From contig CAYNMC010000038.1 of the NCBI GenBank assembly GCA_964398365.1, forward strand, positions 25,727-89,726: a DNA stretch of 64,000 bases. The letters are read 5' to 3'. Positions 23,062-40,942 of the stretch are shown here, one piece after another. Numbering within the stretch: the first letter of the stretch is position 1; every line of letters starts with the position of its first letter. The notes under the pieces were generated by a model. It saw nothing but the letters and a program-made list of their open reading frames with translations, ran no database searches and was not told the DNA's origin. The translations under genes were made by a program, and so were the position numbers. Source of the stretch: an uncultured Pseudomonadales bacterium. Its GTDB lineage: Bacteria > Patescibacteriota > Microgenomatia > UBA1400 > CAYNMC01.

Positions 23062-23133
23062 GGGCTGGTAGCTCAGTGGCAGAGCACTACTCTTATAAAG
23101 TAGGTGTCGATGGTTCGAATCCATCCCAGCCCA
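23062..23133 (+). tRNA. tRNA-Ile with UAU anticodon
   Basis: Hand-folded cloverleaf: GGGCTGG TA GCTC AGTGGCA GAGC A CTACT CTTATAA AGTAG GTGTC GATGG TTCGAAT CCATC CCAGCCC A. All stems are Watson-Crick and anticodon positions 34-36 read TAT. No encoded CCA. Confidence 0.85.
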
Positions 23134-23340
23134 CACTTTTGAAGAAAAAACCATCGGCGATGGCGCCCACCCTGTTTAAAAGCGGTAAAGCCCTTTTTAG
23201 ATAGAAAAGCCGCTAAATATTAATTAAATATTAATTAAATATAGGGAAGTCCAAGTCAAATCTTTTGAAAAAGAATGACTAACTTCCATCACTATGTTTC
23301 GCGCGCCCGATTTTTGCTCGGCTCCGCCGAAGTAATTAGG

Positions 23341-31115: not shown

Positions 31116-31295
31116 AACAATCTTATTTTAACGATTTGAGAAATTTTTTAAAGAGGGTCTTACCGCTGATTTTTTTCTCGTGACGGCGATTTTTGAAAAA
31201 CGCTTTTACAACCCAGTTTAAAGTTGGGTAGGAATAAAGGAAATATATTTATTTCTTCAAAGGAACTTTTAGGCTCAGCAGTCGGTCCATTTCTG

Positions 31296-31367
31296 TGGGC
31301 GAGGATGGGATCGAACCATCGACCTTCGTCTTATCAGGACGACGCTCTACCACTGAGCCACTCGCCC
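31296..31367 (-). tRNA. tRNA-Ile(GAU)
   Basis: Minus strand: GGGCGAG TG GCTC AGTGGTA GAGC G TCGTC CTGATAA GACGA AGGTC GATGG TTCGATC CCATC CTCGCCC A. About 200 nt downstream of the 16S 3' end. No encoded CCA. Confidence 0.9.
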
Positions 31368-32011
31368 CTTCCCTGTTAGTTTTCCTTGCCTAAAAATTAC
31401 CCTCTATTGGTAGGGGCTAAAGGATGATATCAATCTGAATAAGTGATAGGAATCCCCGATTTTCTAAGGTGTCGGCGGCACACCCGACTGTGACGATTTA
31501 CAGTCATGTTTTTCCTTTGACTTGCGCCAAAGAGGTAAAAACCCTGTGAGTGGGTAAACCTTTTATCCTTAAGAAAGGAGGTGATCCATCCGCTCCTTCC
31601 AGAACGGATACCTTGTTACGACTTACCGCTGATTACCGAGCTTGCCTTCACCCCGCCTAAAGGGCGGGGCTTCGGGCACTCCCGACTTTCCTCAGTTGAC
31701 GGGCAGTGTGTACAAGGAGCGAGAACGTATTCACCGCGGTCTGCTGACCCGCGATTACTACCAATTCCGCGTTCATGAGGGCGAGTTGCAGCCCTCAATC
31801 CCAACTGAGGGAAGGTTTGATGGGATTAGCTCCGCCTTACGGCTTGGCAACCCATTGTCCTTCCCATTGTAGGATGTGTGTGGCCCTGGGCATAAGCGCC
31901 GTGCTGACTTGACGTCATCCTCTCCTTCCTCCCCGCCAGTTGGCGGAGCAGTTCCCTAAGAACTTCTAACTTAGGGTAAGGGTTGCGCTCGTTACCGCAC
32001 TTAAGCGTACG

Positions 32012-32045
<34 letters not shown>

Positions 32046-32965
32046 GCTGTCCTAGTGTCCTTGCGGAAGCCTCGGTTTCCCGAAGATGTCACTAGGATGT
32101 CAAACCCAGGTAAGGTTCATCGCTTCGTATCGAATTGAACCACATGCTCCACTGGTTGTGCGCTCCCCCGTCAATTCTTTTGAGTTTTAGCCTTGCGGCC
32201 GTAGTTCCCAGGCGGCCTACTTAACGCGTTAGCTTACGTCACCCCCGCGAAAAACGGAGACAACTAGTAGGCATCGTTTACGGCTAAGACTACAGGGGTC
32301 TCTAATCCCTTTTGCTCCCTTAGCTTTCGTTCATCAGCGTCTGAAGGACCTAGGTGCCTGCCTTCGCTCTCGGTGTTCTTCCCAATCTCAACGGATTTCA
32401 CTCCTCCACTGGGAATTCCAGCACCTCCGATCCAACACAAGTTTTTCAGTATCAATCGCCTTTCTCCGATGAAGTCGGAGGCTTTAACGACTGACTTGAA
32501 AAACCGCCTACGAGACTCTTTACGCCCAGTAAATCCGGATAACGCTTGCACCCTACGTCTTACCGCAGCTGCTGGCACGTAGTTAGCGGGTGCTTATTCC
32601 CCCGATGGTCTCCCATCGGGGAAAAGTGGTTTACAACCCGAAGGCCTTCATCCCACACGCGGCGTCGCGGCGTCAGAGTTGCCTCCATTGCGCACGATTC
32701 CCGGTTGCTGCCACCCGTAGGTGTATGGGCCGTGTCTCAGTCCCATTCTGCCCGTATCCCCTCTCAGGGCGGGTACCCGTCGTAGCCTTGGTAGGCCATT
32801 ACCCTACCAACAAGCTGATGGGCCGCAGGCTCATCCCTCGGCGGACAGTTACGTCCTTTTCCCGATTAAATCGGGATTATGCGGTATTACCCCGCCTTTC
32901 GGCGAGCTATTCCCCACCAAGGGGTAGATTCCTACGTGTTACTCAGCCGTTCGCGGCTAGCGCAA

Positions 32966-33389
32966 CTCACAACACTCAACTACCAACTTTCAACTTTTTA
33001 GAAAAACCGCCAAGTTGATTTACAACGCTTTCACAAAGTTCAATTGACTCGTCAAATTCTTTAGAGTTAATCAGCTTTTCACTAAAAGCAACATCTAACG
33101 CGGATGCTGTTTCATTTGCTGAACCCATCGAATTTTCGAGATATCTGTTGAAATCTTTGTCTGAAGTTTTTGCTGAACCTTCTGCTATATTTAAGACTAT
33201 CGATAAAGAACTTCTTCTTATCTGATCTTTTAGATAATAGAAGTCTTTTGGAAATTTGGCAGACAATCTTACTATTTTTCGATGTAGATTCTTTGAGTCC
33301 TTATATACCTTAAAGTTCAAAAAACGGAAACTTATAATCTAATCATAGCAGAAAGTTGTGTGTTGTTTGTTGGAGGCTGAATGTTGTGA
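32966..33389 (-). other. intervening sequence (IVS) inside 16S rRNA helix 6 / V1, with basal stem
   Basis: After GCATGCAAGTGGAGCGAGCGTAGC the rRNA leaves the conserved core. CTCACAACA (33389..33381) pairs with TGTTGTGAG (32974..32966), after which the core resumes GCGAACGGCTGAGTAACACG. A second pairing, CAACTTTC / GAAAGTTG, lies inside. Confidence 0.8.
32976..33320 (-). CDS. four-helix-bundle protein (23S rRNA IVS protein / S23p / Avd-like family) encoded within the 16S IVS
   Basis: 114 aa. KFPKDFYYLKDQIRRSSLSIVLNIAEGSAKTSDKDFNRYLENSMGSANE matches the family core (QlrRAa.Si..NIAEG...s.kef..fl..A.GS..E). Same strand as the rRNA. Confidence 0.8.
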   Translation of the reverse strand: MNFKVYKDSKNLHRKIVRLSAKFPKDFYYLKDQIRRSSLSIVLNIAEGSAKTSDKDFNRYLENSMGSANETASALDVAFSEKLINSKEFDESIELCESVVNQLGGFSKKLKVGS

Positions 33390-37977: not shown

Positions 37978-39343
37978 TTAAAATTCTCTTCTAATTGGCT
38001 TCCTCTTTCTTTGTGTTTTTGATTTGCTTTTAAGCTCCTCTAATGGTTTAAAAACTATGTTTATATTTTCTCCAAATACAATTTGTAATAATTCTCTTAG
38101 ATGACCAAAAGAAATTTTTTGTTTTTCTAAATCACTAAATAAAGATGGTTCTTTTAATCTTACCTCAAATTTATTAATTCCAGTTTGAATTATCTCGAAT
38201 TCTTGAATATTAACTCCAACATCAAACATCCAACGATAAGTGATATCTAAAATTGTTCCTGCGGGAACAGCGCTTCCATCTTCTTTAATAAAAGCATCAT
38301 TCTGCCTGCCTTCAATTTTTTGAATTTGGCGCCATTTTACCACACAATCATTAGGTTCTCCCAAAGTAACATAATCACCTTGAACGTATTTTATAAAAGG
38401 CATTGCGGTATTAAGAAGATTTGTACCAATTACCAATCCTGTTCCTTTTTGAATAAGTCTTAAAGTTTGTGAATCAACAACATCTATCCTAGCTGTATCT
38501 TCACAAAGGTGATAATGACCGCATGGTAATTCTAACGCTATTCTTGTTAATTCCTCCGAACTATATTCATCTAAAACTGGTACCCCTAACCGCTGTGACA
38601 TTTCTCTTCTTTCTTCTAAAGAAGACATTTCTGAGTGTACTACAGCTAAGATAATTTTATTTTTTACTTCTTCTGGAAGAAAAGGAAGCAGTGACTGAAG
38701 ATTGGTCGGATATAAAGATAAGATATCTGGTTTAACTTCCTCCAAAATCTTAGCAATTTCTTTGGACTCAATCAAACTACTTATAAAAATACTTTGATAA
38801 TCACCACTACCTAATGAATCAACCCACCATGGTACCGTATATACATGGGCAACCACGTGATTTTTAGTGTATTGCCCCCCATCTGCAACCAAAATTGTCT
38901 AATAGTAAGGTATTAATAATAATTCTTAAGGTTTTTCCTGATGAACCACTAGACCTGGTTGGAAATAAATCGGTTATTTGATAGTTTGGATTTAAACAAT
39001 AATCAGGAAAAGCAGTTATTAATTCATCCTTAGTAATTACTGGTAATTTATAATAATCATCCCAACTTTTAAAATCTTTAGGATGAAATCCAACTTGCTC
39101 GTATTTTTCTCTATAAACTGGTATTTCATAAGCTAAAAATAAAAGCTGTCTGATTCTTTCGAATTGTTTTCTTTCTATTTCTTCAGGTGATAAAAAAGGT
39201 TCTTGAAATAATTGTGTCAAAACTCCTTCATTATAAGATAAATCTAACCTATTCCTAAATTCCGGTGAAGTTTTATGCATTTGAGGTAATCTTTGCGTTT
39301 CCCAATATTCAACTATTCTTTGATTAGGATTTTCAGAAGTCAT
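37978..39343 (-). pseudogene. PaaK / coenzyme F390 synthetase-like adenylate-forming enzyme, frameshifted in a G6 run
   Basis: N-terminal ORF 38864..39343 carries TRSSGSSGKTL (AMP-binding P-loop). C-terminal ORF 37978..38892 continues the fold. Deleting one G from the run (complement of 38875..38880) fuses them as ...NFGCRWGQYTKNHVVAH... Confidence 0.65.
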
Positions 39344-40225: not shown

Positions 40226-40300
40226 TGGTGATCCCGGAAGGACTCGAACCTTCAACCATCAGCTTAAAAGGCTGTTGCTCTGCCATTGAGCTACGGGACC
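40226..40300 (-). tRNA. tRNA-Lys(UUU), CCA encoded
   Basis: Minus strand: GGTCCCG TA GCTC AATGGCA GAGC A ACAGC CTTTTAA GCTGA TGGTT GAAGG TTCGAGT CCTTC CGGGATC A CCA. There is one A-A mismatch at the top of the anticodon stem. Confidence 0.85.
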
Positions 40301-40304
40301 AAGA

Positions 40305-40550
40305 TTATTTGTGGTCAATATACCACCGAATATACTTCTTATTTTTTGCCTTTTTTAACCGAATTTCCTCTTTTCTCGCTTCGGATTTAGAATTATACAA
40401 TTTTAAATATACTAATATCCAATCTCCTTTAACCCTGCCAGTAAAGCGTGATTGCGCACTGTTGTGTTCTTTCAGTCTTCGGTTTGGATCTTCGGATATT
40501 CCAATATAGTATTTATCAGCTTCCTTGTTAAATAAGATATAAAGGTACAT
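40305..40550 (-). CDS. GIY-YIG nuclease superfamily protein (small, YhbQ/UPF0213-like)
   Basis: 81 aa. YLYILFNKEADKYYIGISEDPNRRLKEHN carries the GIY...YIG-type motifs and a conserved Arg/Glu. Its stop lies 4 nt upstream of the tRNA-Lys 5' end. Confidence 0.8.
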   Translation of the reverse strand: MYLYILFNKEADKYYIGISEDPNRRLKEHNSAQSRFTGRVKGDWILVYLKLYNSKSEARKEEIRLKKAKNKKYIRWYIDHK

Positions 40551-40607
40551 TTTACCTTAACCATTCCCGACTAAGTCGGGATTGCTCTGCCATTGAGCTA
40601 CGGGACC
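40542..40607 (-). pseudogene. truncated tRNA-Lys-like copy (5' acceptor strand, D arm, altered anticodon arm, degenerate T arm; no 3' acceptor strand)
   Basis: 40582..40607 is identical (26/26) to tRNA-Lys positions 1-26 (40275..40300). A perfect hairpin TCCCG-ACTTAGT-CGGGA follows. TGGTTAAGGT then matches the TGGTTGAAGGT variable/T-stem segment of tRNA-Lys, and the would-be T loop contains the GIY-YIG ATG. Confidence 0.6.
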
Positions 40608-40845
40608 GCAAACACTGATATTTTAATTGAATCAACAGGGTAATGCAATCTTGGTCTAGATAATAGAAACCCCTGGTGGAAATTTACAGTTATCTTCATC
40701 CTTCTAAAATTTTTTAACGATCATCATTAGATGAACTAGAACAGCAGGGGTATATTGTTGATACTATAAACTTTTCTTTTGACATTATAAGTCAGAATAA
40801 TTCCTTAAAATCCAATTTTTTGCTAAAATACAACCTAATTCCTGT

Positions 40846-40919: not shown

Positions 40920-40942
40920 AAAGAGAGTGAAAAAGCCTTGAG

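Follow-up and report, generated by a model that had tools for sequence, protein, structure and literature searches.

This analysis concerns a compact locus at positions 40226-40625 of a 64-kb stretch of contig CAYNMC010000038.1 (assembly GCA_964398365.1), the whole of which is referred to as the window. On the minus strand, on which the features of the locus are read here, a partial tRNA-Lys copy with a palindrome in the place of its anticodon arm is followed by a small GIY-YIG open reading frame (ORF) and then by an intact tRNA-Lys gene. In the order of reading, the parts are:

40620..40625, minus strand: TAAAAT, a candidate -10-like hexamer, 12 nt upstream of the 5' tRNA remnant
40582..40607, minus strand: 5' tRNA-Lys remnant, positions 1-26 (acceptor 5' strand and D arm), 26/26 identical to 40275-40300
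40565..40581, strandless: the palindrome (H*), TCCCGACT-T-AGTCGGGA (= TCCCGACTTAGTCGGGA), exactly at the anticodon-arm position
40554..40564, minus strand: remnant of the variable loop and 5' T-stem strand, ATGGTTAAGGT, against ATGGTTGAAGGT in the tRNA, one base deleted
40305..40550, minus strand: putative GIY-YIG nuclease gene, 81 aa plus stop, catalytic domain only (PF01541, E = 7.6e-17)
40226..40300, minus strand: intact tRNA-Lys(UUU) (ARAGORN; Rfam RF00005, 71.4 bits, full model)

The whole 5' module (40607-40554) is a copy of tRNA-Lys positions 1 to ~54 in which the anticodon arm has been swapped for the palindrome. A preliminary description of this DNA had equated 40607..40582 with tRNA-Lys positions 1-26, and the identity to 40300..40275 is indeed complete (26/26). 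With up to three mismatches allowed, the 26-mer occurs in the window at these two places only (40607..40582 and 40300..40275; chance expectation 0) and is not shared with other tRNAs of the window. The match of the variable/T-stem segment likewise stands: ATGGTTAAGGT aligns to ATGGTTGAAGGT with a single deletion, and the tRNA homology therefore reaches to about position 54 and ends there. The module has no 3' acceptor strand and lacks most of the T arm; ARAGORN makes no tRNA call on 40554-40607 and no Rfam model matches it at E <= 10, the RF00005 cloverleaf included. The ORF begins at 40550, three bases past the remnant end, and stops at 40305, 4 nt ahead of the tRNA, both genes being confirmed by Pfam, ARAGORN and Rfam. 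The two tRNA 5' repeats are spaced 307 nt apart and enclose only this ORF (246 nt). As to expression signals, TTAAAATAT, which resembles the TAAAAT of the window, precedes the remnant in three other loci of the kind described below (L004, L054, L007), while a simple promoter scan flagged no consensus promoter upstream of the remnant, TAAAAT included. The hairpin AAGGTA-AAATG-TACCTT around the ATG, also reported in the preliminary description, is present in the window on RNA folding but has no counterpart in homologous loci; it is rejected as a family feature and, being unconserved, is probably incidental.

The segment between the tRNA-derived pieces had been taken for an anticodon-arm-like hairpin, TCCCG-ACTTAGT-CGGGA. 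The sequence is there, but a perfect 8+1+8 palindrome describes it better than a stem of 5 bp closed by a 7-nt loop (RNAfold folds the window copy into a 7-bp stem and a 3-nt loop), and what looked like a UUA anticodon consists of the palindrome arms and a free central base. Rather than a degenerate anticodon arm, it is a fixed palindrome and the key conserved element of a cassette that recurs in other genomes.

A word-indexed protein search yielded ten relatives of the ORF product, whose contigs were fetched for locus comparison. Homologues at 47-74% identity keep the order remnant, palindrome, ORF, tRNA with differing tRNA-Lys sequences, and both UUU and CUU anticodons occur among these protein-found relatives. 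In L004 (69% identity), L007 (58%) and L012 (47%), a 5' fragment of the tRNA-Lys of that locus is followed by the 17-mer, the beginning of the T stem, the ORF and an intact tRNA-Lys, while L010 (the same contig as L036; 59% identity) has an extra palindrome copy between ORF and tRNA; the acceptor stems of this group, L004/L007/L012/L010, are all different (GGCCCCG, GAGCTCG, GGGCGCG, GGCCCCA). What the relatives show is not a pair of ordinary tandem tRNA genes with an unrelated ORF between them. Starting from the palindrome instead, a scan of one genome per prokaryotic species for the pattern GAGCA(N)TCCCGACTNAGTCGGGA returned 38 loci with 55 sites, where about 0.5 chance matches are expected. 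In 34 of the 38, the palindrome lies exactly at the anticodon-arm position of a tRNA-like sequence, and the same 17-mer takes this position in most protein-found loci. The hosts in the palindrome scan are Patescibacteria (Magasanik-, Ames- and Gottesmanbacteria, Paceibacterota), Bacteroidota (Bacteroidales, Chitinophagaceae including the isolate Niastella vici, Crocinitomicaceae) and metagenome-assembled genomes labelled Gammaproteobacteria, and the scaffold of many of these loci is tRNA-Asp(GTC), not tRNA-Lys. A protein-first metagenome scan, which used an alignment of the Lys-clade proteins and left the palindrome aside (an alignment of all clades was too divergent for locus finding), gave 66 loci.

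Searches with the protein and searches with the palindrome thus recover one cassette layout, in more than 100 loci together, and its tRNA identities comprise Lys, Asp, Arg(TCT) and Leu(TAA). When the loci of the metagenome scan were pooled with those fetched earlier, an intact tRNA on the same strand was found within 150 nt of 56 of 65 non-redundant GIY-YIG cores, most of the others lying at contig ends; association with tRNA genes is the rule in this family. A frequent full layout consists of a 5' remnant with the palindrome, the ORF, the intact tRNA and a 3' remnant (D loop to 3' end) that again bears the palindrome, as seen in maps of palindromes, ARAGORN tRNAs and GIY-YIG ORFs for L021, L024, L027, L030, L033, L034 and L039. 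This second remnant, present in many copies, was not part of the preliminary description, and the window copy represents the shorter form without it. In the commonest gene order the palindrome lies 10-55 nt upstream of the start codon; in an alternative order (L031, L109) the tRNA and a terminator-like hairpin separate it from the ORF. The parts are tightly packed: the gene for the 80-90-aa putative nuclease reaches up to the next part or runs into its first 10 nt, and in at least six loci (L007, L012, L021, L030, L034, L046) its stop codon is the T8-A9-G10 of the tRNA itself.

The distribution is patchy across distant hosts and includes degenerate copies, as is characteristic of homing genes. 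Among phage records, a search with the protein gave two weak Listeria phage matches only (33% identity), and among plasmid records no match, leaving a phage or plasmid vehicle unsupported; the bare palindrome had two GC-rich, chance-like matches in viral contigs, which were set aside. Full-text literature searches retrieved no published description of GIY-YIG genes paired with palindrome-substituted tRNA remnants and Rfam has no model for the 5' module, in agreement with the earlier statement that no element of this architecture was known. The occurrence of the cassette beside tRNA genes in several phyla points to an undescribed selfish element living in tRNA genes.

The remnants follow the tRNA next to which they are found. 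In 16 of 21 Lys loci the acceptor 7-mer of the remnant equals that of the neighbouring intact tRNA; the Lys loci comprise 16 distinct acceptor 7-mers, and of 408 comparisons across loci a single one gives a match. In more than 25 loci the remnant is identical to the 5' part of the tRNA at 26/26 or 27/27 positions. The similarity breaks off near positions 50-65, within the T stem or T loop and often directly after the T-loop GGTT, which agrees with the T-loop breakpoint proposed earlier. Local flanks can be duplicated as well, namely leaders in L047, L031 and L051 and the trailer with its terminator in L045. In the Arg clade, a 66-nt remnant is nearly identical in three loci whose ORF DNA is just ~70% identical. 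Across these loci, the tRNA-derived flanks track the neighbouring tRNA and the palindrome stays fixed. That a cassette has invaded or duplicated a tRNA gene near the T loop while an intact copy was kept, as was first suggested for the window locus alone, is now supported by dozens of independent loci with four tRNA identities. The other suggestion made there, that the 5' module might be a signal for expression or processing, is possible as well.

The palindrome has the form TCCCGACT-N-AGTCGGGA, and among the first relatives only its central base varies. Over the wider family, clusters of the protein coincide with tRNA identity and with the variant of the palindrome, and every variant alters both arms symmetrically:

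Lys and Asp clades: TCCCGACTNAGTCGGGA
Arg(TCT) clade: CCCCGACTNAGTCGGGG
Leu(TAA) clade: TCCCGATTAAATCGGGA or CCCCGATTYAATCGGGG; here the ORF follows the tRNA
One Lys sub-lineage: TCCAGACTTAGTCTGGA

At the Val, Glu and Ala loci, which are more distant, other GC-rich palindromes occupy the disrupted anticodon arm, and in the Leu clade and L035 a second hairpin of this type replaces the T arm of the 3' remnant. Outside the genome palindrome scan, all 21 detected sites (21/21) are perfect palindromes, a count to be read with the caveat that the detection pattern demanded a near-palindrome and further-decayed sites would escape it, whereas the neighbouring 26-28 tRNA-derived nucleotides of the same loci show 79/555 ungapped mismatches to the neighbour tRNA. 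Given this difference, and the badly decayed D arms beside an intact palindrome and an intact ORF in L004 and L036, the palindrome is less eroded than the pseudo-tRNA that surrounds it. It has also changed less than the protein, whose identity between the Lys and Asp clades is ~40%.

Within the palindrome all eight positions of each arm are complementary, among them bases that an anticodon hairpin would place in its loop, and the centre is free. In imperfect copies, G-T pairs number 8 on the sense strand against 7 on the antisense strand, and with no wobble bias in this small sample a selected sense-strand RNA hairpin is not supported. Where the two copies of a locus differ in their centre, they always differ by complement (5/5 loci: L024, L078, L105, L052, L016), and so do the centres of the syntenic pair L026/L051. 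These properties point to a symmetry that acts at the DNA rather than the RNA level. Symmetry alone is no proof of selection, since template switching at palindromes also yields flipped centres and symmetric arm changes. Sequence-specific recognition is argued instead from the constancy of the sequence across diverged protein clades, and because the putative nuclease is the only protein that the cassette encodes, the palindrome is favoured as its site. It is probably a conserved cis element at which the nuclease binds.

Two further observations concern this motif. The T loop of some palindrome-bearing remnants contains an extra short hairpin, e.g. gtccactccagtcgaatgactggac (L028 3131-3210; L052 at ~1242-1300 in flipped coordinates); these hairpins could be footprints or further palindrome insertions. 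In the window itself, positions 32860-32876 read TCCCGATTAAATCGGGA, identical to a Leu(TAA)-clade variant; shuffling predicts 0.08 17-mers per window within 3 mismatches of the palindrome. As the site lies within the 16S rRNA gene (31574-33022, minus strand), it is treated as a chance match, probably a variable-region helix, and not as a true copy.

Many copies are decayed, nested or repeated. Only the first ~15 codons of the ORF are kept in L051 (it is complete in the syntenic L026), and in L046 the ORF is truncated at the N terminus. A remnant and a tRNA without an ORF are found in L047, L049, L017 and L019, and a tRNA-remnant layout without an ORF in L018 and L028. In L060 (40/40 identical), L084, L105 and L026/L051 the 3' end of an older ORF copy precedes the remnant. 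Tandem arrays occur in L023 (three 74-nt units), L050 (three 99-nt units) and L038; the last, from the cultured Niastella vici DJ57 (L038 1-176), has a period of ~95 nt and consists of tRNA 5' fragments with intact or decayed palindromes, at a contig end. Alleles are also mixed. The 5' and 3' remnants of L070 belong to one tRNA-Arg allele (GAGCCCA...TGGGCTC, 7/7 acceptor pairs) and flank the ORF and a different intact allele (GAGTCTA...TAGACTC), and the same remnant allele stands beside other intact alleles, with unrelated upstream DNA, in L082 and L106. In the genome of L021, a second tRNA-Lys adjoining a tRNA-Arg is disabled by the palindrome and a D-arm deletion, and its 3' half is that of the intact tRNA at the nuclease locus 5 kb away.

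The membership of the window protein in the GIY-YIG superfamily is established. PF01541 matches residues 1-73 with 61.8 bits against a cut-off of 22.6 bits (E = 7.6e-17), and of the residues compared in 19 cassette proteins Y4, Y15, G17, H29 and E62 are invariant and R25 and N70 nearly so, the window protein having all of them. The AlphaFold2 model (pLDDT 89) contains strands at 2-8, 13-19 and 44-51 and three helices, and thus the three-stranded sheet of GIY-YIG domains. Its top structural neighbours in the Protein Data Bank (PDB) are all GIY-YIG domains, though with modest scores (best E = 3.9e-3, TM 0.62): BH0048, Slx1 bound to branched DNA, EF2693, the I-TevI catalytic domain and the UvrC N-terminal domain. 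From this we infer nuclease activity. The domain fills the whole protein, and with 81 aa in total there is no room for a separate DNA-binding region of the kind that SegB and I-TevI combine with their catalytic domain. The group I intron endonuclease model TIGR01453 stays below threshold (17 bits against a 56-bit cut-off). The protein is of the UPF0213/YhbQ type: its best sequence matches are EF2693 (PDB 1YWL, E = 8e-7) and BH0048 (PDB 1ZG2, E = 8e-5), which rank 1 and 3 in Foldseek, have the same size and likewise consist of the catalytic domain only. These two are structural-genomics proteins without assigned function, at ~30% identity only, and a literature search found no report linking UPF0213 proteins to tRNA genes. 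An exhaustive protein search gave 63 representative clusters at E <= 1e-10 and 2176 at E <= 1e-3, many of them with apparent N-terminal extensions of 25-50 aa; that of the 110-aa P0007 is due to a gene call that extends upstream across the remnant. The nearest characterised structural neighbour, SLX1 (6seh), shares only the nuclease core and differs in being a eukaryotic enzyme with an added RING domain and an SLX4 partner and in not being a mobile element; as it processes branched DNA, its relationship suggests that a hairpin or cruciform such as the palindrome could be a substrate.

The nearest precedent for the cassette is SegB, the free-standing GIY-YIG homing endonuclease in the tRNA gene cluster of T4/T6 phages, which cuts tRNA genes at RAWTSGAAC, drives recombination-dependent tandem amplification of a tRNA-containing segment and whose gene is statistically enriched beside tRNA genes (PMC13096335). 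RAWTSGAAC can be read as the reverse complement of the T-loop consensus GTTCSAWTY. Both systems embed a GIY-YIG gene among tRNA genes; SegB is borne by phages, whereas the present family is chromosomal and nearly absent from phage records, and no palindrome-substituted tRNA remnant has been described for SegB. SegB is also much larger than the window protein, with an extra DNA-binding region. Given that SegB cuts in tRNA genes and causes tandem amplification, nuclease-stimulated recombination at tRNA genes is a reasonable mechanism here.

We give about an even chance to the reading that the window locus belongs, as an intact copy, to a widespread family of selfish cassettes of the homing type that are resident in bacterial tRNA genes. 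The nuclease would break DNA, and repair by recombination between the tRNA-derived arms and cognate tRNA genes would copy the nuclease gene together with the tRNA into those genes in a homing-like gene conversion. Dead tRNA pieces bearing the palindrome would be left over from copying, and the duplicated working tRNA would keep the host alive and make loss of the cassette hard. The palindrome would most likely be a symmetric DNA site that the nuclease binds as a dimer or as an extruded hairpin, and that may act as an operator, a break point or both. If the break lies between the D and T arms, synthesis-dependent annealing repair from a cassette donor could produce all layouts. Both the mobility of the cassette through recombination and the role of the palindrome are deduced here from comparison of sequences.

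Several points weigh against this reading. The intact tRNA retains every tRNA-internal sequence, and a tRNA-directed nuclease would therefore have no obvious self-immunity, which leaves the escape of the occupied locus from such a cut unexplained; a cassette cut at the palindrome would contain its own target. For reading an 8-bp half-site, a domain of 81 aa is small, and correction of quasi-palindromes through template switching could maintain the symmetry without selection. The part transferred may be the remnants or the intact tRNA, and the Arg clade fits either. The Bacteroidota loci L017, L019 and L023 carry palindrome-bearing remnants with no nuclease gene in the fetched 8 kb. A clean pair of empty and occupied alleles was not recovered by searching with the neighbouring SpoU methylase: the contig of the nearest relative (84% identity) begins inside tRNA-Gln and the other contigs are non-syntenic. 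That relative (L120 1-450; SpoU methylase 84% identical) has a different GIY-YIG-type ORF (MKFYYVYVLKS...) between tRNA-Gln and the SpoU methylase gene, an interval that in the window measures 23 nt only (40920-40942). Small GIY-YIG genes seem to come and go next to tRNA genes in the lineage of the window.

Among the alternatives, the one that survives best, though we consider it rather unlikely, is SegB-like homing in which the palindrome is an immune allele. The nuclease would cut tRNA genes in their native state, at either the anticodon arm or the T loop, and repair from the donor would insert the cassette, the palindrome serving as an uncuttable replacement arm that shields leftover copies and leaves them with a shorter homology to the working tRNA. 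The replaced stretch coincides exactly with the anticodon arm, the remnants end in the T loop, where SegB cuts, and tRNA identity matches the protein clade, all as this view would have it. It also predicts every layout (remnant-ORF-tRNA, remnant-ORF-tRNA-remnant and the ORF-less tRNA-remnant of L018 and L028) from synthesis-dependent repair with one donor and varied annealing points. However, mere difference from the target would suffice for immunity, which leaves the constancy of the 17-mer across the ~40%-identical proteins of the Lys and Asp clades unexplained, and the intact tRNA of the cassette would stay a target.

A role at the RNA level is still less probable, and we judge it unlikely. 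Here the remnant and the palindrome would form the transcribed leader of the nuclease mRNA under a captured tRNA promoter and act as a stabiliser, a translational operator or an antitoxin-like decoy that restrains the nuclease in the manner of type III toxin-antitoxin systems. The position of the palindrome shortly ahead of the start codon in the commonest gene order would fit, as would the tRNA leaders often included in remnants (L047, L031, L051), the tandem arrays of palindrome units, which resemble antitoxin repeat arrays, and the near-identity of the 66-nt Arg-clade remnant in spite of its diverged ORFs. Against this, the complementarity runs into the would-be loop and the sense strand has no G-U bias, the palindrome also occurs downstream of the tRNA in 3' remnants and at the T-arm position in Leu-clade remnants, the tRNA and a terminator-like hairpin stand between palindrome and ORF in L031 and L109, and remnants with a decayed D arm stand next to an intact ORF (L004, L036).

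A bolder proposal, which we hold to be improbable, would make the tRNA-like module the specificity device of an otherwise non-specific 81-aa nuclease. The palindrome would be the handle that holds the protein, and the tRNA arms would select the cognate gene through pairing, either as DNA in the course of recombination or as an RNA that acts like a guide. The anticodon arms of resident tRNAs would be overwritten with the palindrome and a replacement tRNA would be supplied. If true, it would be a programmable minimal drive that kills and replaces a gene, retargeted by swapping tRNA arms (Lys, Asp, Arg, Leu).

It is very improbable that the locus is immobile, in which case a small nuclease gene with a housekeeping role would share its transcript with tRNAs and the remnants would be tandem tRNA duplicates in ordinary decay. 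Proteins of the UPF0213 type are commonly encoded by single-copy chromosomal genes. The near absence of the family from phage and plasmid records and the identity of the window copy in three samples would agree with immobility. However, ordinary pseudogenes would not all gain the same 17-mer in the same arm, and the patchy cross-phylum distribution, the several tRNA identities, the nested copies and the foreign tRNA alleles all speak against a resident gene.

That the partial tRNA copy is the duplicated attachment site of an integrase-inserted island in tRNA-Lys is scarcely credible and was rejected on anatomy: an island border had been assumed here in the preliminary description, and ~3 kb away there is a fragment of an rve-type integrase, but the repeat is 5', the copies are 307 nt apart with only the 246-nt GIY-YIG ORF between them, and the same layout recurs in unrelated contexts without integrases. 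Elements that integrate into tRNA genes do resemble the cassette in using a tRNA gene as landing site, duplicating part of it and leaving a working copy. They are integrase-based and kilobases long and duplicate the 3' part, which reportedly is the classical outcome of integrase-mediated insertion, whereas the cassette has no integrase, duplicates the 5' part or both parts, overwrites an arm with the palindrome and has one 246-nt ORF as its payload. A group I intron in the tRNA gene was also rejected on anatomy, and no intron model, of group I or otherwise, matched the region (Rfam, E <= 10) or the whole window (gathering score). Group I introns with homing genes in the anticodon loops of bacterial tRNAs are similar in that a homing-type gene colonises tRNA genes and spares their function; the function of an interrupted tRNA is rescued there by RNA splicing, and in the cassette by a duplicate gene.

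Elsewhere in the window, a tRNA-Ile with the anticodon TAT (UAU) lies at 23062-23134; tRNA-Ile(UAU) is uncommon in bacteria, where AUA is usually read by a modified CAU tRNA. A 16S rRNA gene is followed by tRNA-Ile(GAT) at 31295-33022, and as no 23S rRNA match was found within the 64-kb window, the rRNA operon looks unlinked. Two overlapping ORFs on the same strand at 37978-39343 (159 aa and 304 aa) may represent a single gene broken by a frameshift, which would fit the decaying island of the preliminary description.

If the preferred reading of a selfish cassette holds, a homing-type gene would occupy an essential gene with neither an intron nor an intein, through duplication and the overwriting of the spare copy with a palindrome. 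It would also pose a puzzle of specificity, as an 80-aa catalytic domain without a DNA-binding region would have to find its place, the 17-bp palindrome being the candidate site. There are consequences for annotation: ARAGORN calls full-length palindrome-bearing pseudo-tRNAs tRNA-Stop(tta) or tRNA-Leu(taa) (L021 526-600, L052 6936-7010, L032 3651-3727), which could pass for suppressor tRNAs or codon reassignment in genomes of candidate phyla, and gene callers lengthen the nuclease ORF through the remnant, as in P0007. Niastella vici DJ57, a cultured carrier of remnants, offers a possible experimental handle. Taken together, the tRNA genes disabled by the palindrome and the arrays of remnants suggest that these cassettes remodel the tRNA gene sets of small genomes.

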